DNA of 64,000 bases from an uncultured bacterium (GCA_964596115.1 CAZQRW010000002.1:15480-79479), one strand, 5' to 3'. Positions 4,475 to 55,152 are shown, numbered from the stretch's first letter. A program made the numbers and translations. Notes: generated by a model from the sequence alone, not told the origin.

Positions 4475-6439
4475 TTATCTTCCTAATTTTGTGCCCACTA
4501 TAATGGGCTTAGTTAATTTTTCAGTTTTTCCATCTGTTTCTTTTACAACAATATGAATGAGATAAAGTCCGATAGTTACTTTTTTATCATACTCATCCTC
4601 TCCATTCCAGTATGTCTCGTATGGCCCACCTGGATAATTCACAACAAGAATCTTCACCAATCTGCCCTCAGCATCAAAAATCTTTGCAGTAATGCTTGAG
4701 TTATGTGGAGCGGTTATTTTTACATCCGCAACCTCACCCAGGTCATAAGAGAATGGATTTGGTGTAATTGTACAGGTGAGTACCTCTGTTGTTTCCGAAG
4801 GTATCTCCATAACTATATCGTTCATATCTCTGGGAAGAAGTTGATAACCAGTTGTATATGGTTCATGGGAGTCATATTGACCACCAACACCCGTAATAGT
4901 AAATATGTCTCCCTTACCCATCATATTTCTCATTGAGTCAACATTTATACCTGTGCCTGTTTCTAACCTTATGGTTATATATGCCTGACCATTTGCAACG
5001 GTAAAATTGTAACCCCCTCCAGCTGCTATTGGTGTTAATGGTGTCACGACCTTTGATTTTTTTACACAGAGGAGCCTTCCCTCGGTGGATTCATCAAGAC
5101 CAACCGATGTGGCGAGCGTCTCCGGTTTAAATATGGGATCCCATCTCGAAATTAGTGTGACATCGGATGGATTATTCACCTTCACCTCTGTTAATCCATT
5201 ATATTCATCTACAGTACCCTTTATCAAATACCTATAATTCCTTTTTACAGGGATAGCATCATAGGAAAATATATCAACTCCGCTGGTGGTATCATTCAAA
5301 TAGAAACCGGTCCCCGTTGGAGAGATATTTCCCGTTACTGCATAGCCGAGCACAGTAACAACATCACCAAGCATACCAGAGGTAACGCCATCAGGGCCTG
5401 GATTCTGAACGTCTCTTAGATCTGTTATTGTGGGCATTGCTATAATTTTTATGAATGGTTTTCCAGCAACAGAAAAAATGTTATTATCCATACTTCCCTC
5501 AACCCTGAATGTAAATGTGCCTGTCGTATCAATAATGACATTATTAACCTGGATCATCACTGTATCAAATATACTGGTGCCAAAGACCTTAATTGTGTCT
5601 CCTGTTGAATCGGATACAACTACTGCTGAATCATTTGAGGGAAGATCAATTGAACCAACATTATGAGACCAGATAATTTCGGGAGGGATAAAAACTCTGA
5701 GATAACTCACCGTATCTATAGTACTTATGACCCGAAATTTTAGATTAAAATTAACCCTCTCAAAAAATTGAACAGGGTCACAATCTGCATAGAGCCCCTC
5801 TATCTCTCCAGGCTCAAGGATATCTCTGTCATCTCTGGGAAGGATCTTGTAATCGTAGTAATAGTCTACCGGACCTGTAACACTATATGTATCACCTACA
5901 ACAGGTTCAAAGTAAAAAATCCTATCGTCAACTATTGCAGGTCCACTTCCATCATCAACCTCCCACTCCCCATAGGCATTAACACCCTGCGTGCAAGCTG
6001 CTTTTACAACCTTTACAAGCACACCTTCATACTTCTCATCGGATATATTACCGGTGGAATCAATAACAGGGTCAGGGGGCGTTGTAGAACCAAGTACTGT
6101 AATTTCATCTGGATAAGAGACCTCTGTAACACCATAGTATTCGCTCACCTTCCCAGTAATTCTTACACTATCCCCCCTCTCAACACCTGGATTTGAGGAA
6201 CCATTGTATATATAAATCCCTCTCCAGGCACCACCTGGTTTCATCTCAACAAAGAAGGCATATCTTGTACTTCCACCAGACAGGTATGTAAAAGGTGCGG
6301 TAACAACACCGTAGAAAGTGACGGTGCTGTCAACAAATGGTGAAGAACTGGCGTGTCCCTGAATCTCTTCAATAGTATGAACCCCTCCAATCATAGAGAG
6401 GGGCAAAAAGGCCAATAAAAAAATTGATATTTTCTTCAT
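4475..6439 (-). CDS. Secreted multi-domain protein with two extracellular-nuclease-type OB-fold repeats and a C-terminal FlgD-Ig-like/T9SS-type sorting domain
   Basis: Signal peptide at the N-terminus. Residues ~20-150 read 'HTIEEIQGHASSSPFVDSTVTFYGVVTAPF…GDSVRITGKVSEYYGVTEV'. This is the I.EIQG…SP..G..VT..GVVT pattern of the N-terminal OB-fold in COG2374 extracellular nucleases. A second copy follows ('GDVVTVLGYAVTG…IKGTVDEYNGLTEV'). The C-terminus reads 'KIFDAEGRLVKILVV…GLYLIHIV', a FlgD-Ig/Por-secretion-tail-like domain. The gene is paralogous to 6453-7397. Confidence 0.55.
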   Translation of the reverse strand: MKKISIFLLAFLPLSMIGGVHTIEEIQGHASSSPFVDSTVTFYGVVTAPFTYLSGGSTRYAFFVEMKPGGAWRGIYIYNGSSNPGVERGDSVRITGKVSEYYGVTEVSYPDEITVLGSTTPPDPVIDSTGNISDEKYEGVLVKVVKAACTQGVNAYGEWEVDDGSGPAIVDDRIFYFEPVVGDTYSVTGPVDYYYDYKILPRDDRDILEPGEIEGLYADCDPVQFFERVNFNLKFRVISTIDTVSYLRVFIPPEIIWSHNVGSIDLPSNDSAVVVSDSTGDTIKVFGTSIFDTVMIQVNNVIIDTTGTFTFRVEGSMDNNIFSVAGKPFIKIIAMPTITDLRDVQNPGPDGVTSGMLGDVVTVLGYAVTGNISPTGTGFYLNDTTSGVDIFSYDAIPVKRNYRYLIKGTVDEYNGLTEVKVNNPSDVTLISRWDPIFKPETLATSVGLDESTEGRLLCVKKSKVVTPLTPIAAGGGYNFTVANGQAYITIRLETGTGINVDSMRNMMGKGDIFTITGVGGQYDSHEPYTTGYQLLPRDMNDIVMEIPSETTEVLTCTITPNPFSYDLGEVADVKITAPHNSSITAKIFDAEGRLVKILVVNYPGGPYETYWNGEDEYDKKVTIGLYLIHIVVKETDGKTEKLTKPIIVGTKLGR

Positions 6440-6452
6440 TTATCACCCTTTC

Positions 6453-7397
6453 TTAAAGATGTATAAATCTTGATACATTTGTCGTATCGTTTGTTTTCAA
6501 TATAATGAAGTATATTCCTGCGTTTGTTCTTTTCAGATCAATGTTATATTTATGTGCACCTCTTTCAAACCTCCCTTTCATTACCCTCTTTACCAACCTG
6601 CCATTGATGTCATAGATACCTATCTCTCCCTCGGTATCCTTATCCAGAATAAATGAGACCTCTATATTAGAGGGAGCGAAATTGGAAGAAACCTTAAATG
6701 TAATGACGTTCCCACTATTTATCTCCCTTATGCCACTAACATTAACAATATCCGAAGAATCCCTGGGCTCAACCTTGAAACTATCAAAGGCAAAATTTAA
6801 TGGTCCTATAACGGTGTAAGAATCTCCAAGTATTGGGGTATAGGACACATTCCAGTCGTCGACTCTCAAAGGGCCTGAACCATCATTTATTTCCCACTCG
6901 CCATGGCCCAGATCAGTATTGGTGCATTGTGCATTTTCTACTTTTAAAAGGACTGATTCGTATTGTTCATCGTTCGCATCACCAGTAGAAACTATTAAAG
7001 GTAAAGGTACCCCTACACCACTTGCGAGAATACTGTATGTATTACCGTAAGCAAACTCAGTCATATTGTTATATTCCTGAATAGTGCCGGTTATTTCAAC
7101 ACTATCACCTCTGGAAACATCCTGTGTCCAGGAGTAACCTTGATATGCATATATTCCTTTCCAGGCACCAGCAGGTTTTTCCTCAATAAAGAATCCCCTT
7201 GAGAATACACCTGTAACCACGCCAGAAGTAGTAACAGTACTGCCCACATATGGAGAGTCACCTGATGGATCTGTCGTATATTGGATTTCGTAGATAGAAT
7301 GGTATGAGCCCAAAAGAGGAATAACCATCGTCAACCCCAAGAAGATCCATAACCTTTTCATAAAACACCTCCTTTTTACTTTTTTTAACTTTAACAC
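6453..7397 (-). CDS. Secreted protein with one extracellular-nuclease-type OB-fold domain and a Por_Secre_tail (T9SS type A) C-terminal domain; paralog of 4475-6439
   Basis: Signal peptide at the N-terminus. 'HSIYEIQYTTDPSGDSPYVGSTVTTSGVVTGVF…GDSVEITGTIQEYNNMTEF' aligns with the N-domain of the neighbouring gene. This includes a shared 'GEWE(V/I)DDGSGP…VDD' block. C-terminal 'IGIYDINGRLVKRVMKG…AGIYFIILK' matches the T9SS C-terminal sorting-domain consensus. Confidence 0.55.
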   Translation of the reverse strand: MLKLKKVKRRCFMKRLWIFLGLTMVIPLLGSYHSIYEIQYTTDPSGDSPYVGSTVTTSGVVTGVFSRGFFIEEKPAGAWKGIYAYQGYSWTQDVSRGDSVEITGTIQEYNNMTEFAYGNTYSILASGVGVPLPLIVSTGDANDEQYESVLLKVENAQCTNTDLGHGEWEINDGSGPLRVDDWNVSYTPILGDSYTVIGPLNFAFDSFKVEPRDSSDIVNVSGIREINSGNVITFKVSSNFAPSNIEVSFILDKDTEGEIGIYDINGRLVKRVMKGRFERGAHKYNIDLKRTNAGIYFIILKTNDTTNVSRFIHL

Positions 7398-24757: not shown

Positions 24758-24847
24758 AACTCTCAAAGGAAACAATTCCACCCTTGACATAGGGTCAAAA
24801 TGTGTTATATAAAATTGATTAACTCTATAAACATTAAGGAGGTGGAA

Positions 24848-25216
24848 ATGAGCCAGGCTTTGGGAAGACATGTTTTGCTCGAGTTTTTTGGATGTGCTCC
24901 TGAGACTCTTTCAAGGGTTAATTATGTTAAGGACGCACTTTTAAATAGTGCAAGGATTTCAAATGCTAAAATTGTAGACACACTTTTCCACCAGTTTCTT
25001 CCCTATGGAGTATCAGGAGTAGTTGTTATTGAAGAGTCACATTTTACAATTCACACCTGGCCAGAACACGGCTATGCGGCAATAGACCTCTTCACCTGTA
25101 GTAACGATGTGGATGTTGAAAATGCAGTAGAATACCTCAGAAGTACGCTCCAACCGGAAAATGTTGAAAGGATAGAGGTTGACAGGGGAGCAACCTTTAA
25201 ACTGGAGGCTGTATGA
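24848..25216 (+). CDS. speH: S-adenosylmethionine decarboxylase proenzyme (small class 1b type)
   Basis: 'VIEESHFTIHTWPEHGYAAIDLFTC' contains the self-processing ES|S site and the conserved HTWPE block. AAGGAGGTG lies 5 nt upstream of the ATG at 24848. Confidence 0.85.
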   Translation: MSQALGRHVLLEFFGCAPETLSRVNYVKDALLNSARISNAKIVDTLFHQFLPYGVSGVVVIEESHFTIHTWPEHGYAAIDLFTCSNDVDVENAVEYLRSTLQPENVERIEVDRGATFKLEAV

Positions 25217-26067
25217 CGGAGGATGACCGATTATACTTTGTTGAAAAAAGTATAAAAGAAATCATCTCTTTCTACACCGTTGATGAAAGAATAATTAAAG
25301 AGAGAACGCCTTATCAGCTCGTTGAGATATACAAGTTAAAAGGATTCGGGAAATCATTGTTCCTTAATAGCGCTCTCCAATCTACGGAGTACGACGAGTA
25401 TATTTATCATGAGGGTCTTGTTCAACCTGCTATGTTTGCTCACCCTGAACCAAAAAGTGTCTTTATCGGGGGAGGAGCTGAGGGTGCTACACTGAGGGAA
25501 GTTTTGAGACATAAGGAAGTTGAAAACGTGACTATGATTGAAATAGATAAGAGAGAGTGGGAAATTTGCAATCAATTTTTACCCGAATTCTCTCAGGGTA
25601 AATTTTCTGATGAAAGGGTAAATCTTATCTTTGATGATGCAAAAACAATACTTGATAGAGAAGAAAAATACGATGTTATTATTTTTGACCTCCTCGACCC
25701 AGCGCCTTTAACCCCTTCAGAGGATATGTACAAGATACCATTTTTAAAAAAATTAAAGAAAAAATTGAAACCCGGTGGAATATTTGTTACACAGGCAGGA
25801 TCTATATATCTCAGTACTGGCAAATTCTTTTTTAGTATATGGAAACACTTAAGCAGTGTGTATTCAAATGTAGTTGCTTACGAATTACACATACCTTCAT
25901 TTCAGTTGCCCTGGGGAATCATAATAGCTTCAGATAAGCAGAATTTATTTACTCCAAAAAGAACAGACGTCAGGGGACTAAAATTTTACTCTACAGATTA
26001 CCATTCTTCTCTGTTAAATTCTTATCTTCATTTAAAGAATGAGCTGGATTTCAGAAAATCAGACTGA
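25213..26067 (+). CDS. speE: Spermidine synthase / polyamine aminopropyltransferase
   Basis: 'VFIGGGAEGATLREVLRH' (GGGDGG-type methyltransferase-fold motif) and 'DLLDP'. The start overlaps the speH stop (ATGA). Confidence 0.85.
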   Translation: MTEDDRLYFVEKSIKEIISFYTVDERIIKERTPYQLVEIYKLKGFGKSLFLNSALQSTEYDEYIYHEGLVQPAMFAHPEPKSVFIGGGAEGATLREVLRHKEVENVTMIEIDKREWEICNQFLPEFSQGKFSDERVNLIFDDAKTILDREEKYDVIIFDLLDPAPLTPSEDMYKIPFLKKLKKKLKPGGIFVTQAGSIYLSTGKFFFSIWKHLSSVYSNVVAYELHIPSFQLPWGIIIASDKQNLFTPKRTDVRGLKFYSTDYHSSLLNSYLHLKNELDFRKSD

Positions 26068-26824
26068 GAATCTGAAACTATCCTTTCGTATAAAAAAACG
26101 TCTTTTAAAGACCCGTTCAAAGTTCCAGCTTATAGAGGTCTACGACACATATGAATATGGTAAGCTTCTTCTCCTCGATAGAAAGGTAATGTTCACCGAG
26201 AAGGATGAATTCATATACCACGAAATGATTGTTCACCCTACGATGGGTATGATAAAGGCAAGAAATATACTCGTAATTGGCGGCGGAGATGGTGGAACCG
26301 TAAGGGAACTGCTAAAATATCCGGTGAATAACATCACACTCGTAGAAATTGATGAAAAAGTAATAGAAACAGCAAAAAAATTTTTCCCTCGTATGGCAGA
26401 TACGCTAAATGATAAAAGGGTTAATATAATAATTGATGATGGTTCTAAATACGTTTTAAACTCAGAGGAGGAATATGACCTCATCATTTCAGATTCAACG
26501 GACCCTATCGGTCCTGGGAAAGTGCTATTTGGAGAAAATTATGTTAAAGCCATCTCAAGAATATCAAATGTGCTTGTTTCTCAATCTGAATCTCCCATAT
26601 TCCATAGGGAATTAATAAAAAAATTCCATAGTATAATAAAAAAATACTTTAAAAATCTCTTGTTTTATTTTGTTCCTATCCCTACTTATCCATCGGGTAT
26701 ATGGTCCTTTACTGTGGGTCTGAATGTAAATATTAAAAAACCCAACAACAAATCTCAGAAATTTTATTCCCCATCATTATTTGAAGGACTTACCCATATA
26801 CCAGAAGCATTTAAAATTAAATGA
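26039..26824 (+). CDS. Second polyamine aminopropyltransferase paralog (spermidine-synthase family)
   Basis: 'ILVIGGGDGGTVRELLKYP', 'VEIDEKVIE' and 'IISDSTDPIGPG' match the aminopropyltransferase family. It is clearly diverged from the upstream copy. It overlaps both neighbours. Confidence 0.8.
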   Translation: MSWISENQTENLKLSFRIKKRLLKTRSKFQLIEVYDTYEYGKLLLLDRKVMFTEKDEFIYHEMIVHPTMGMIKARNILVIGGGDGGTVRELLKYPVNNITLVEIDEKVIETAKKFFPRMADTLNDKRVNIIIDDGSKYVLNSEEEYDLIISDSTDPIGPGKVLFGENYVKAISRISNVLVSQSESPIFHRELIKKFHSIIKKYFKNLLFYFVPIPTYPSGIWSFTVGLNVNIKKPNNKSQKFYSPSLFEGLTHIPEAFKIK

Positions 26825-28299
26825 AGGAATCCTTGAGAAAAAAATTCCTTGAAAATGAAGGGGGTAAAATCCGACCTGCTGGAGGATTTATAAAAGTCGC
26901 CCTTGGTTATCCAAATAATTACGCTGTCGGTATGTCCAACCTTGGTTTTCAGTGGATATATTTCCTTATAAACAAAAAGAAAGAATCATTTGCTGAAAGG
27001 TTCTTTTATTCTAATGATTATCCTGTTACCCTTGAAAGTGGAAGAAAGATCGTCCTATCAGACATTATAGCCTTCTCTATTTCCTTTGAACCGGATTATT
27101 TCCGTGTGGTTGAGATGATAAGAAACACGGGGCTTAATCCCTTAACGGAAAAGAGAAAAGAAAATGACCCTATAATCATAGCAGGGGGCGGATTTGCGAC
27201 GATTAATCCAGAACCTATTGCTCCATTCTTTGACATTATCTTTATTGGCGATGGGGAGGGAGTGATTGAAGAATTTATAGAAACAGTGTCCAAATACAAG
27301 GGAAAAAAGGATTGGAAGAAAAAGGTAAAAGAAGATATAGCAGGCATTAATGGAATATATATACCTGAGTATATCAAAACTGGTTTTACCAATGAAAACT
27401 ACAAAATAGAAGGGAATTTCCCAGTGAAAAAAAACATCTATTCAGGAGAAGAGCCGGCATTTACCCCTATATTGTCAAATTTTACTCATTTCAAGGATAT
27501 GGAACTTATTGAAATTGAAAGAGGCTGCAAATTCAGATGTAAGTTCTGTTCTGTCGGATATGTAAATAATCCTTTCAGAATGTATAAAAAAGATAAAATA
27601 TTAAATAATATTTTCCATAAGAAAGTTGGACTCATCGGGGCTGCAGTAGCAGATTATACAGGGTTAGAAAGTCTTCTTGATTCTCTGGTGGGAAAAGTTG
27701 AGCATTTGGGCATCTCTAGCGTAAGAGTGGATAGACTTACCTCTGACACTCTGAAACTGTTAAAAAAACTTTATGTAAATTCTATAACTATTGCCCCAGA
27801 GGTTGCCAGTGACAGAATGAGAAAAAAAATTGGGAAATTTGTGAGTCTGAATAAGATCTTAAAGGTTGTAGAAATAATGAACAATGTTGGAATCACGCAT
27901 CTTAAGCTTTACTTTATCATTGGCCTTCCGGGTGAGGAAGATCAAGATGTACAAAGAATAATTGAAGATGTAAAGATTATCTCAAAAACTTTCAGTGGAA
28001 ATATTTCAATAAGCGTAAATCCCTTTGTTCCAAAACCATTTACCCCATTTCAATTCGAACCATATATAGGAAGAAAAATCTTCTCAAGAAGGGCAAGAAT
28101 GTTGCGTGTTGGTTTGAGGAATGTTAAATTAACAATTAAACCATATATGGGAGGATTGATTCAAACAATTCTTTCAAGGGGAGGACGTGATGTTGCCACA
28201 GGTCTATTAAAGGGCAATGTTATGGATTATAAATATTATAGTGGTAGACTTCAAAATTCTCACCTATACCCGTGGAATGTAATAGAGACAAAAGTATGA
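26821..28299 (+). CDS. Radical SAM enzyme with an N-terminal Rossmann/B12-binding-like domain; the last gene of the speH-speE-speE operon
   Basis: 'ERGCKFRCKFCSVGY' is a CxxxCxxC cluster motif. The N-terminal 'ALGYPNNYAVGMSNLGFQ' is typical of rSAM proteins with an N-terminal flavodoxin/B12-like domain. The start overlaps the upstream stop (ATGA). Confidence 0.8.
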   Translation: MKESLRKKFLENEGGKIRPAGGFIKVALGYPNNYAVGMSNLGFQWIYFLINKKKESFAERFFYSNDYPVTLESGRKIVLSDIIAFSISFEPDYFRVVEMIRNTGLNPLTEKRKENDPIIIAGGGFATINPEPIAPFFDIIFIGDGEGVIEEFIETVSKYKGKKDWKKKVKEDIAGINGIYIPEYIKTGFTNENYKIEGNFPVKKNIYSGEEPAFTPILSNFTHFKDMELIEIERGCKFRCKFCSVGYVNNPFRMYKKDKILNNIFHKKVGLIGAAVADYTGLESLLDSLVGKVEHLGISSVRVDRLTSDTLKLLKKLYVNSITIAPEVASDRMRKKIGKFVSLNKILKVVEIMNNVGITHLKLYFIIGLPGEEDQDVQRIIEDVKIISKTFSGNISISVNPFVPKPFTPFQFEPYIGRKIFSRRARMLRVGLRNVKLTIKPYMGGLIQTILSRGGRDVATGLLKGNVMDYKYYSGRLQNSHLYPWNVIETKV

Positions 28300-28320
28300 T
28301 TCTTGACCTTACCCCGGTAC

Positions 28321-28758
28321 TTACCAGTGACCTTTACCCTTTTTCTTATAAACTTTCCACATGGGGTTACCTTTCTTATCCCTTATGAAAATCACCTTTT
28401 TACCTGAATTTATCTCTGATGCAAATATTACCCTTTTCCCAGAGTAAAATCCCCTGGAGCCTGTTATAATTACCTTCATCCCAGGCCTAAAAATCCAACC
28501 TCTCTTTATTATCCAAGGTCTTGGGCCGGTATGAACAAAGAATATTCCATTAGGTGTCTTAACCTTCAAAACCAGAACCTCTCCAAAATCATCTACAAAA
28601 ACATACTTTACCCCAACCACTGTCCCTGTCAGAGTAAGAACAGTTGAAGGATTATAAAGGGAAACATAAACTACCTTTCTTCTTGTTACAACAGGTGGCC
28701 CATAGCATCCTGCATAGACCATACTAAATAATGACAGTAGGACAAATATCTTTTTCAT
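28321..28758 (-). CDS. Small secreted protein or lipoprotein with a basic C-terminus; hypothetical
   Basis: Signal peptide with a lipobox-like 'VYAGC'. C-terminal 'KVYKKKGKGHW'. No recognisable domain. Confidence 0.35.
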   Translation of the reverse strand: MKKIFVLLSLFSMVYAGCYGPPVVTRRKVVYVSLYNPSTVLTLTGTVVGVKYVFVDDFGEVLVLKVKTPNGIFFVHTGPRPWIIKRGWIFRPGMKVIITGSRGFYSGKRVIFASEINSGKKVIFIRDKKGNPMWKVYKKKGKGHW

Positions 28759-28814
28759 AAGTATGCCTCCTTTTTTTATTTAGATACATATATTTGCAAG
28801 AAGTTCCCATCCCC

Positions 28815-28861
28815 CTCCAAATTACACATATATATCCACGATATATATGTGTAATTTGGAG
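28815..28861. repeat. Perfect 21-bp inverted repeat with a 5-nt spacer: CTCCAAATTACACATATATAT-ccacg-ATATATATGTGTAATTTGGAG
   Basis: Read directly from the sequence. 28815-28835 is the exact reverse complement of 28841-28861. It lies 59 nt downstream of the rpmB stop and 57 nt upstream of the start of the 28321-28758 gene. Confidence 0.9.
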
Positions 28862-28919
28862 AATTCCGTGATTTCAAAAGTAAATGATGATAAAAAGGGG
28901 AGTATAACCTACCAATAGA

Positions 28920-29111
28920 TCAATAGATTTTTTCAAGGTCAAGCTTTTTCAAACATTTAGAGCAGACATTCAGCTTTTTAATCCCATCTTTTGTCTTTAC
29001 TTTAACAACGTGAAGATTAGGATATCTAACCCTTTTTGTTTTTTTATGTGAATGGGAGACTGAATTCCCAAATTGTGGTCCTTTTCCACATATATCACAT
29101 CTTTTCGCCAT
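28920..29111 (-). CDS. rpmB: 50S ribosomal protein L28
   Basis: 'MAKRCDICGKGPQFGNSVSHSHKKTKRVRYPNLH' matches the L28 family. Length is 63 aa. Confidence 0.9.
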   Translation of the reverse strand: MAKRCDICGKGPQFGNSVSHSHKKTKRVRYPNLHVVKVKTKDGIKKLNVCSKCLKKLDLEKIY

Positions 29112-29185
29112 TTAAGTTCCTCCTTGGTATGTCTTATTTATGATGTTAATATATTGAAAAAAACCTGGCTGTCAAGTGAATATAA

Positions 29186-30943
29186 TTGACAAAGATTATT
29201 TTTAGAATATCTTTTTTATCAATGAAAGATATACTAAAAATGCTAAGCAGATTGAAAAAATATTGGGTGAGGGTGTTGGCAGGCATTATTATCCTGATTA
29301 TAGTGGATGGCATACAAGTTTTTATTCCTCGAATTCTTAAGTATGCTATAGATGGTCTTGCCACTGGTCACTTTGTTAAGCCCCTTTCTTACTTTGCAAT
29401 TCTTATTATCATCCTTGCATTCACTATTGCATTCTTCAGGTTCTGGTGGAGATACTTTGTCATTGGCACTTCAAGACTTGTAGAAAGGGAAATGAGAGAT
29501 GGTTTCTTTTCCCACCTTATTTCAATGGACCCATTGTTTTTTGTAAAGAGAAAAATTGGCGATCTTATGGCACATGCGACAAATGACATCGACGCTATAA
29601 GAATGGCTATCGGTATGGGCTTAATTGCACTTACGGATGCTCTTTTCTTATCCTTTGCGTCTATTTTTATGATGACAAGAATAAATCTTAGCCTTACTCT
29701 TTATGCTCTTATACCTGCTCCATTTCTCACTGTTATAACCTATTATTTTGGTGTAGTTATACATAGAAAATTTGAATATTCACAAGCAGGGTTTTCCTTG
29801 CTAACAGAAAAAGTAAGAGAGTTCGTTTCTGGAATAAAAATTATCAAGGGTTACAATCAGGAAACAGGCTCTGTCGAAAATTTTGATGAAACAAATAAGG
29901 AATACTATAATAGAATGATGAGCCTTATGAAATATTGGACAGCATTCGATCCTCTCCTATTCTTCTTTGCTTCCCTCTCATACGTTGCAGTTATCTGGTT
30001 CGGAGCATGGTACGTTATCTATGGGAAAATAACACTTGGTGATCTCGTCGCTTTTGTAAATTATTTAGACCTTATGATCTGGCCTATGATAGCATTTGGA
30101 TGGGTCGTAAACCTTTTCCAGAGAGGAAGTGCCTCATTCAACAGGGTGGAAAGGATAATGAAAGAACAACCCACAGTAATAGATATAGGCAAACCAACGC
30201 CAATAAAAGGAAAAATAGAATTAAGAGATCTAATGTTTTCTTACAATGGTAAAAGGGTTCTAAATGGTATAAACGCTGTATTTAAAAATGGAAAAATTAC
30301 TGCGATTGTTGGTCCCACAGGCGCAGGAAAATCCACAATTGTTGAACTTATAATGCGCTTTTATCCTGTAAATGGGATATATATTGATGATAAACCCGCT
30401 GAAGATGTTTCCCTTTCAGAATTTAGAAAAAGAGTAGGTTATGTTCCCCAAGAAACATTTCTCTTTTCTGATACAATTGCAAATAATATTTCTCTGGGAA
30501 AACCATCTGCATCAAAGAAAGAAATTGTGGATGCTGCAAAGGTCGCAATGATCTACGATGAAATTATGGAATTACCCAATGGGTTTGAAGCTATGCTTGG
30601 TGAAAAAGGGGTTAATCTCTCTGGTGGTCAAAAACAGAGAATTGCTATTGCAAGAGCAATTATTCTCAATCCACAAATATTAATACTTGATGATGCACTT
30701 TCATCTGTTGATTCACACACAGAGAAAAAAATAATAGAAAACCTCAGTAATTTCCTGAAAGAAAGGAATTCCATTATTATAAGTCACAGAATTTCCGCAA
30801 TAAAGGATGCCGATGAAATCCTTGTAATCGATGATGGTAGAATCGTTGAAAGGGGTATTCACAAAGAATTAATAACCAAAGAGGGTTTATATTACCTCTT
30901 ATATAAAAGACAACAATTAGAGGAAAAACTGGATGCCACATAA
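29186..30943 (+). CDS. ABC exporter, fused permease/ATPase (MsbA/heterodimeric type), subunit 1
   Basis: Six-TM N-domain. Walker A 'GPTGAGKST'. Signature 'LSGGQKQRIAIARA'. Walker B 'ILILDDALS'. The true start may be the internal ATG (MKDILKML). Confidence 0.9.
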   Translation: MTKIIFRISFLSMKDILKMLSRLKKYWVRVLAGIIILIIVDGIQVFIPRILKYAIDGLATGHFVKPLSYFAILIIILAFTIAFFRFWWRYFVIGTSRLVEREMRDGFFSHLISMDPLFFVKRKIGDLMAHATNDIDAIRMAIGMGLIALTDALFLSFASIFMMTRINLSLTLYALIPAPFLTVITYYFGVVIHRKFEYSQAGFSLLTEKVREFVSGIKIIKGYNQETGSVENFDETNKEYYNRMMSLMKYWTAFDPLLFFFASLSYVAVIWFGAWYVIYGKITLGDLVAFVNYLDLMIWPMIAFGWVVNLFQRGSASFNRVERIMKEQPTVIDIGKPTPIKGKIELRDLMFSYNGKRVLNGINAVFKNGKITAIVGPTGAGKSTIVELIMRFYPVNGIYIDDKPAEDVSLSEFRKRVGYVPQETFLFSDTIANNISLGKPSASKKEIVDAAKVAMIYDEIMELPNGFEAMLGEKGVNLSGGQKQRIAIARAIILNPQILILDDALSSVDSHTEKKIIENLSNFLKERNSIIISHRISAIKDADEILVIDDGRIVERGIHKELITKEGLYYLLYKRQQLEEKLDAT

Positions 30944-54996: not shown

Positions 54997-55032
54997 TAAT
55001 CCTCCTTAAAAATAAAATAAGTGCACAGTTGT

Positions 55033-55106
55033 GCACTTATTATGGGCGAAAGAGGAGTTGAACCTCTGACCTCCGGTATGTGAGACCGGTGCTCTAACCA
55101 ACTGAG
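55033..55106 (-). tRNA. tRNA-Val (anticodon CAC)
   Basis: The minus-strand read GGGCGAATAGCTCAGTTGGTTAGAGCACCGGTCTCACATACCGGAGGTCAGAGGTTCAACTCCTCTTTCGCCCA folds as a cloverleaf. The anticodon loop CTCACAT has U33 and A37. No CCA is encoded. Confidence 0.85.
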
Positions 55107-55152
55107 CTATTCGCCCTTCCAAATCTTTCTCCCATATATACTCTGTATTAAG

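Follow-up and report, generated by a model that had tools for sequence, protein, structure and literature searches.

A perfect palindrome downstream of rpmB in a putative candidate division WOR-3 bacterium belongs to a family of long hairpin repeats that may be REP-like

The stretch of DNA analyzed here (the window; 64,000 nucleotides of one contig from an uncultured bacterium) contains, at positions 28815–28861, a palindrome, hereafter P1, that lies in the 161-nt spacer between rpmB and a gene for a lipoprotein-like protein. The upstream gene, rpmB, encodes ribosomal protein L28 (28920–29111, minus strand; Pfam PF00830 Ribosomal_L28, 9.2e-21). The downstream ORF (28321–28758, minus strand; 145 aa) has precomputed matches to the MamS_MamX domain (PF26390), is preceded by a strong Shine–Dalgarno sequence (AAAGGAGG), and is lineage-specific, with only two 90 per cent-identity clusters among 5.8 billion proteins. 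P1 begins 58 nt past the rpmB stop codon, and 56 nt lie between its end and the ATG of the lipoprotein gene. On the minus strand, the hairpin is followed immediately by the G-rich tail GGGGATGGGAAC (28803–28814), which is the sole intergenic G/C-rich tract of the window. Besides rpmB, the neighbors of P1 are ABC exporters, a radical SAM gene and spermidine synthases; there is no adjacent regulator gene in the window and no recombinase gene near P1. Judging by the names on homologs of the neighboring ABC exporter, the host is probably a candidate division WOR-3 bacterium.

On the far side of the lipoprotein gene, window positions 24800–28299 hold a polyamine cluster that comprises AdoMet decarboxylase, two spermidine/spermine synthase paralogs that overlap in tandem (284 and 261 aa) and a 492-aa radical SAM enzyme of B12-binding-like type. 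In a sister lineage (contigs L025 and L026; L026 631–2976), the radical SAM gene is missing from this place, and the lipoprotein and synthase genes stand ~320 nt apart. Beyond rpmB, where the rpmB and ABC promoters diverge, the start codon of the first ABC exporter gene (ATG at 29222) falls within an imperfect inverted repeat of 17 bp with a loop of 10 nt (ATTTTTAGAATATCTTT...AAAGATATACTAAAAAT; 29198–29241), which may control translation or transcription. The GC skew changes sign at ~22000 (from about -0.25 to +0.12), exactly at the switch of gene orientation from minus to plus (21983/22097). Since the skew tracks the coding strand in the rest of the window, its change of sign reflects coding-strand composition and is not an origin mark.

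The two arms of P1 (28815–28836, CTCCAAATTACACATATATATC; 28840–28861, GATATATATGTGTAATTTGGAG) are complementary at 22 of 22 positions and enclose a non-palindromic 3-nt centre, CAC (28837–28839). When the window was simulated 200 times with a first-order Markov model, the arms of the longest perfect inverted repeat (loops of up to 10 nt) averaged 10.0 nt (standard deviation 1.1; maximum 14), and the runner-up in the real window has arms of 12 nt. With up to three mismatches allowed, the window holds no second copy or half-site of P1, and a covariance model of the P1 family scores 94.6 bits at P1 (minus strand) versus 16.7 bits at the next match. The search for a further copy was extended along the same contig (10 kb sought on each side, ~18 kb in total) and found none, which amounts to one copy in ~82 kb. 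The core of the palindrome is an alternating pyrimidine–purine tract (ATATATAT) that is cruciform-prone. The arms have a G+C content of only 27 per cent, but the 22-bp stem is stable: at 37 °C its folding energy is -28.9 kcal/mol for RNA and -19.5 kcal/mol for DNA, and at 70 °C the RNA value is still -10.6 kcal/mol; the whole rpmB–lipoprotein spacer has a fold z-score of -4.8. In Rfam 15, P1 has only sub-threshold matches to generic hairpin models of miRNA precursors (best score 33.8 bits versus a threshold of 81), and the gathering score is reached in the whole window by two tRNAs only.

The first-pass annotation, which was made from the sequence alone, had described a 21/21 inverted repeat downstream of rpmB and ~57 nt ahead of the lipoprotein gene, far longer than chance allows and with an AT-rich stem of low stability. 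The repeat, its position and its improbability hold, with arms that are one pair longer; the composition is as described, but the stability is not low. Folding, which the same annotation had proposed, gives a 22-bp hairpin on either strand. It had also proposed a genome-wide search for copies and regarded a motif found nowhere else as evidence against its reading: there are none in the ~82 kb of genome read, but copies do occur in relatives, as described below.

A near-consensus sigma-70-type promoter candidate for rpmB (TTGACA-16-TATATT, 11/12 by consensus match) is located at 29148–29175 on the minus strand, and a weak promoter-like site at 28915–28887. Because both candidates are upstream of the hairpin, the hairpin is expected to be transcribed, and the rpmB promoter is the likely source of transcripts that would run into it. 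A promoter scan found no convincing promoter between the hairpin and the lipoprotein ATG, no sigma-70-like promoter inside P1, and no hexamers at usable spacing in or just after it. No U tract follows P1 on either strand (the next bases are GGGGAUGGG for the minus strand and AAUUCCGUG for the plus strand), as the first-pass annotation had observed, and a terminator scan of 28200–29300 returned no terminator-like site. Canonical terminators are not enriched in the region (11 observed versus 14.4 expected). The organism does use U-tract terminators, however: just 3' of tRNA-Val (55043–55116), a perfect 12-bp hairpin (AAUAAGUGCACA/UGUGCACUUAUU; 55016–55041, minus strand), which is the second-longest perfect inverted repeat of the window, is followed by UUUUAUUUUU and, at the end of the tRNA-Met/tRNA-Val pair, represents a canonical intrinsic terminator. 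P1 has no U tract although the genome uses such terminators, and it is therefore unlikely to be a classical intrinsic terminator.

A separate block, AGGTTATACTCCCCTTTTTAT (28887–28919), lies directly after the rpmB stop codon and is conserved in the orthologous spacers of contigs L024 and L025. It ends in a short U tract that is preceded by no convincing stem, and it could be a weak or unconventional 3'-end signal of rpmB, separate from the palindrome.

Contigs that are 99.7–99.98 per cent identical to the window all carry P1 between identical unique flanks, and in at least eight independent assemblies (from ENA, JGI and others, made with various pipelines from various samples) the 47 bp are bordered by unique sequence that differs between the two sides. 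Four Logan k-mer contigs (L008, L009, L018 and L019) break inside P1; their ends lie 88–89 nt away from the neighboring genes, and the breaks reflect how an assembler handles a 47-bp palindrome in a k-mer graph. The centre of P1 is GTG instead of CAC in L004, L006 and L017 and in the Logan pieces L008, L018 and L019, with the spacer otherwise unchanged, and the difference is one 3-nt inversion rather than three substitutions. In contigs that cover both sites, the GTG state is fully linked to the SNP 27504C, and given this linkage the flip within the window's species may be a single event. When we applied a four-gamete check for recurrent flips, the flanking SNPs likewise displayed the four gametes, a sign of recombination or mixed consensus. 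Both orientations of the centre are also present in contigs of the sister lineage and among other copies of P1. Comparable minute inversions of hairpin loops occur in chloroplast DNA.

The palindrome is conserved at its orthologous site in the sister lineage (L024, L025 and L026), in which the lipoprotein is 87 per cent identical and the order rpmB–palindrome–lipoprotein gene is kept. In L025 and L026, none of the 44 arm positions differs from the window, while the flanking spacer is ~20 per cent different. In L024, one stem pair of P1 has changed on both sides relative to the window copy (C:G to T:A), which keeps the pairing, and a second change leaves a T.T mismatch. An empty site was not found, because the distant WOR-3 relatives (ABC exporter ~62 per cent identical) have lost synteny, with rpmB not next door; these relatives have neither P1 nor P2, the related repeat described below.

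Further copies of P1 with other flanks are found in the same metagenomes, on contigs L027, L028 (two copies), L046 and L047. L027 and L028 came from an exact-match scan of metagenome contigs (the sample of L026), and two more contigs were obtained through homologs of the adjoining ORF fragment. The scan covered part of JGI and passed over a known contig, Ga0366836; it returned three contigs in the sister lineage's sample, and 13 of its 16 matches were lone half-arms on unrelated contigs with no palindrome, which are probably due to chance. Among GTDB species-representative contigs, in which the source species is absent, CTCCAAATTACACATATA had only four single matches, in unrelated taxa, and a scan of viral contigs for the palindrome gave no match.

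The copies occupy three loci: (i) the rpmB spacer; (ii) a site upstream of an N-terminal fragment of murJ (copies A of L028 and L047, with L027 as the left extension); and (iii) a site at which P1 ends the murJ fragment, at the same codon in three assemblies (copies B of L028 and L047, and L046). In the sister lineage, P1 was seen in two genomic regions only, the rpmB spacer and the hot spot around the murJ fragment. Copies at these unrelated loci are near-identical over 41 bp and share the invariant core AATTACACA[A/T]ATATATC-NNN-GATATAT[A/T]TGTGTAATTTG. Variation in the outer stem is compensated, with both sides changed in 4 of the 22 pairs, and 96 per cent of stem cells are paired, as against 23–61 per cent in slid controls. 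The stem part ACA[A/T]AT is mismatched in four of nine P1 copies; the window copy and copy A of L028 show the mismatch-free alternatives T:A and A:T.

The contigs that bear the other P1 copies also carry a second repeat, P2 (AAATCTGACAAATTCAA-CCTGC-TTGAATATGTCAGATTT). P1 and P2 have in common the outer stem CCAAAT/ATTTGG, the total length, an odd-numbered loop and the kind of tail, and their inner-stem differences are mirrored in both arms. The P1 covariance model picks up P2 copies with E-values of 1e-5 to 2e-8. In every P2 copy, the stem has one or two mismatches within ACA[A/T]AT, and the P2 loop, like the centre of P1, occurs in both orientations (CCTGC versus GCAGG). Every copy of P1 and P2 has a G-rich tail on one side, which ranges from the short version in the window (GGGGATGGGAAC) to more than 50 nt (e.g. 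GGGAGGGGTGGTGGGAGGAAAGGGTTGAGGGTTAGGGG); the tail gives polarity to an otherwise symmetric element, and at the rpmB locus it points along transcription. The family unit is thus a stem-loop of 41–47 bp with an odd loop of 3 or 5 nt and a G-rich tail on one side. Four other readings of these repeats were considered and rejected: a small ORF through the palindrome on the C-rich strand of L027 has a frame that is not kept in other copies; an integron attC site lacks the R''/R' core sites; a pair of uptake sequences would have half-sites at kilobase density, of which there are none; and there is no CRISPR array.

The hot spot in the relatives extends over L046 5136–6908, L047 1–640, L027 3376–3677 and L028 1–440. 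There, P2 on both sides of a Y1 transposase gene is followed by a near-consensus promoter (TTGACA-16-TACAAT) ahead of a small conserved ORF (~38 aa, ...KALxIxKYQKFL...), then by P1 or P2, depending on the lineage, and by the N-terminal murJ fragment that is cut by another P1. The short contigs around the murJ fragment may include chimeric joins at repeats, but the truncation point shared by three assemblies argues that the structure is real. In the genome of the window, a strain-variable segment of ~2.4 kb lies ~2.3–4.7 kb past the window's right end (L051 14442–16865 versus L052 14442–14468) and in some strains holds a gene for a T9SS-tailed protein of 570 aa and an 89-aa gene remnant, beside a lipoate/biotin ligase-family gene; neither P1 nor P2 is present at its junctions.

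The Y1 gene lies on L046, a related contig that may or may not come from the same species as the window, at 5212–6078, between two P2-plus-tail repeats (5136–5200 and 6162–6226). These 65-nt units are 98 per cent identical to each other and are direct, not inverted, relative to the tail. Within 800 nt after the gene follow a degenerate P2, a third P2 and, ~750 nt away, P1 at 6827–6871. The encoded protein of 288 aa matches the Pfam Y1_Tnp domain (2.6e-10; 40.9 bits, with a cut-off of 23) and scores 66.9 bits against the NCBIfam model of REP-associated tyrosine transposases (REP_Tyr_transpos), below the curated cut-off of 80, and 17.8 bits against the IS200 model. It has the HuH motif NHIH, the tyrosine motif YIHLNP and a weak C-terminal HTH (E ~3e-3); in a PDB sequence search it gave marginal matches only, to ISDra2 TnpA and E. 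coli TnpA-REP (E ~0.3–0.5). A Y---NP motif is the signature of class-2 TnpA(REP), and Y[IV]HLNP together with a C-terminal HTH marks subclass 2.1, or 'TIRYT' (Quentin et al. 2018, PMC6006769). By its HuH and Y---NP motifs, and by a profile that favors REP-associated over IS200 transposases, the protein belongs to the class-2 TnpAY1 enzymes, and by motifs, as distinct from a tree, it is assigned provisionally to subclass 2.1. In the window and its 10-kb extensions there is no Y1 transposase gene.

Among characterized systems, P1 and P2 share most with the REP/BIME elements and REPINs that accompany RAYT transposases in E. coli, Pseudomonas and Stenotrophomonas, which are likewise short, species-specific, hairpin-forming palindromic repeats. 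REP elements are found for the most part 3' of genes that stand in tandem or convergent pairs, and they work as RNA hairpins (PMC3733652); the position of P1 just downstream of rpmB, in a tandem pair, is of the same kind. A genome may hold several related REP subfamilies (Y, Z1 and Z2; compare P1 and P2), and REP copies cluster around or flank the gene of a class-2 Y1/HUH transposase, as do P2 and P1 in L046. Both kinds of element also have a polar tag on one end and some insertions inside genes. The tag differs, however: REP elements have a 5' GT[AG]G at the hairpin foot, whereas P1 and P2 have a G-rich tail of 12–60 nt. None of nine P1 and none of six P2 copies has GT[AG]G at the foot; at the foot of the window hairpin, the junctions read GGAATT/CTCC on the minus strand and CATCCCC/CTCC on the plus strand, with the slash at the edge of the hairpin. 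GTGG and GGTAG strings occur only inside the 3' G-rich tail and at variable distance. Moreover, REP elements are 20–40 nt long with mismatched stems, whereas P1 and P2 have stems of 20–22 bp that can be perfect (the window element of 47 nt is perfect), and REP copies typically number more than 100 per genome, as against apparently a few for P1 and P2. In REPtrons and TIRtrons, the flanking repeats are inverted, whereas those of L046 are direct, and they are P2 rather than P1.

The L046 protein, with its YIHLNP and NHIH motifs, its 288 aa and its weak C-terminal HTH, resembles the TIRYT enzymes, the subclass 2.1 TnpAY1 transposases of TIRtrons (Di Nocera 2013, PMC3733652; Quentin et al. 2018, PMC6006769), and the repeats associated with such enzymes are G-rich and of low to moderate copy number, as are P1 and P2. 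In the published survey, however, subclass 2.1 genes had no REP-like hairpins nearby and were flanked by terminal inverted repeats, often with GGGGWSAS (PMC6006769; PMC3733652), whereas the L046 gene has long hairpins in direct orientation. A match to GGGGWSAS, GGGGTGAG, is present in one tail only (L046 6222–6229), and the window tail GGGGATGGGAAC does not match. The L046 unit lacks the inverted repeats sharing GGGGWSAS that would define a TIRtron. The subterminal hairpins of IS200/IS605 elements and of PATEs, which are non-autonomous derivatives of these, provide a third comparison: the hairpins to the left and right of a Y1 gene share one orientation, as in L046, and are recognized on single-stranded DNA, a mode that would be expected for P1 and P2 as well. 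Unlike L046, which encodes a class-2 protein (Y---NP, 288 aa) and lacks tnpB, IS200/IS605 elements have a class-1 transposase (Y---Q, ~150 aa); and unlike theirs, the left and right repeats of L046 are one and the same 65-nt unit.

Template switching between the arms of inverted repeats homogenizes the arms and inverts spacers (PMC8604942, PMC8794818). P1 fits such events, with a CAC/GTG centre in near-identical DNA, mirrored arm changes and single mismatches as intermediates. The pattern in ACA[A/T]AT, which is mismatched in other P1 and P2 copies and 'repaired' to T:A and A:T in the window and in copy A of L028, further supports template switching. This is a mutational process and not a functional class; it explains the symmetry of P1, but not its origin or conservation.

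We hypothesize that P1 at rpmB is a low-copy, atypical REP-like element, a member of a hairpin family of the type associated with class-2 Y1/HUH transposases and specific to a small WOR-3 clade, and we assign this reading a probability of roughly 0.55. We do not file P1 as a canonical REP, given the lack of GT[AG]G at the foot and the apparently low copy number; it is a variant that probably works like one. Class-2 Y1/HUH transposases (RAYT or TIRYT) recognize and spread single-stranded DNA hairpins of the REP type, and the rpmB copy would have been deposited by, or copied from, such a Y1 system before the two sampled lineages split, and then retained. The enzyme that would have mobilized P1 is presumably encoded in this genome too. 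Intramolecular template switching between the arms during replication would account for the perfect symmetry and for the CAC/GTG flips. Transcribed from the rpmB promoter, P1 would form an intercistronic RNA hairpin of -29 kcal/mol, which would most likely shield the rpmB message from 3' exonucleases and lower read-through into the lipoprotein gene. The closest precedent at the RNA level comes from E. coli, where REPs between tandem genes stabilize the message upstream and also attenuate read-through (PMC3733652), and where one REP is both terminator and stabilizer (bioRxiv 10.64898/2026.03.23.713779). By analogy, a role as stabilizer and attenuator for rpmB and the lipoprotein gene seems most likely.

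Of the alternatives, the one that survives best, although we consider it unlikely, is an RNA element that evolved locally and has no mobile origin, such as a factor-dependent or U-tract-less terminator, an RNase III site or an mRNA stabilizer, with the other copies being paralogous regulatory hairpins. At 22 bp, the perfect duplex has the length that RNase III needs in a substrate. The very stable hairpin on the transcribed strand and the spacer z-score of -4.8 would suit such an element, as would the conservation of the orthologous position while the flanks diverge, the lack of enrichment of canonical terminators in the region and the lipoprotein gene without a clear promoter of its own downstream of the hairpin. 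However, the near-identical 41-bp cores at unrelated loci imply duplication or spread and not independent evolution, one copy truncates the murJ frame at the same codon in three assemblies, and members of the family accompany a Y1 transposase gene. An RNA role is compatible with the REP-like reading, since REPs do both.

The first-pass annotation had preferred an operator for a dimeric or tetrameric DNA-binding protein, which here would be a double-stranded DNA site for a regulator of the lipoprotein gene or of a small envelope regulon. We consider this improbable, despite the perfect dyad symmetry, the location 56 nt upstream of the gene start, the copies upstream of the murJ fragment as well, and the weak C-terminal HTH of the L046 Y1 protein (E ~3e-3), which could in principle bind. 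Arms of 22 bp that are kept base for base far exceed an operator half-site, the differences between P1 and P2 are mirrored so that pairing is kept, and a symmetric operator would have no use for a polar G-rich tail. In the window there is neither an adjacent regulator gene nor a half-site elsewhere, and promoter hexamers at usable spacing are lacking in and just after the palindrome. The element of 41–47 bp also recurs in unrelated, non-promoter contexts, on the 3' side of the truncated murJ ORF and on both sides of the transposase gene.

The same annotation had offered a recombination- or replication-related site as a further option. In one sense this comes close to the reading favored here, in which P1 is a hairpin repeat of the HUH/Y1 type. 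As a dedicated target, be it an invertible switch with the flip as a recombinase product, a hairpin-telomere or protelomerase site, a dif-like site or an origin element, we find it very improbable. Both orientations of the centre occur among near-identical strains, and the core of alternating pyrimidines and purines (ATATATAT) is cruciform-prone. But a 3-bp inversion changes nothing outside the loop and cannot switch a promoter, and the full linkage of the flip to 27504C implies rare events rather than a running switch. The odd, non-palindromic CAC centre does not provide the true dyad that a resolution site requires, the palindrome is internal to contigs of more than 100 kb, which argues against a telomere, and there are multiple copies per genome in relatives and no recombinase gene nearby. 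Finally, we give practically no credence to an artifact of assembly or sequencing, e.g. a fold-back chimera: palindromes do trouble de Bruijn assemblers, and Logan contigs do end inside this one, but at least eight independent assemblies have it embedded in unique sequence that differs between its two sides, and it recurs with substitutions in a diverged sister lineage.

Within the REP-like reading of P1, a more specific scenario can be put forward tentatively, as one that we regard as doubtful. Subclass 2.1 TnpAY1 enzymes with a C-terminal HTH would have the hairpins with G-rich tails of P1 and P2 as their natural substrates, in single-stranded form, and in this WOR-3 clade the enzyme, or a domesticated descendant of it, would maintain a few hairpins at particular intergenic positions by envelope genes (the lipoprotein gene and murJ). 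The mismatch in ACA[A/T]AT might then serve recognition and the tail cleavage or guidance, and the window copy might be an immobilized relic that was 'repaired' by template switching and is now an RNA hairpin.

The rpmB locus is a clean natural case of spacer inversion and arm homogenization at a bacterial inverted repeat, in strains that are 99.7–99.98 per cent identical. P1 explains the assembly breaks at this point and cautions against reading such palindromes as operators. If the link between the repeats and the Y1 gene holds, biology of the REP/RAYT type would reach the uncultured phylum WOR-3, and a long hairpin with a G-rich tail would become a candidate substrate for the widespread Y1 transposases of subclass 2.1.
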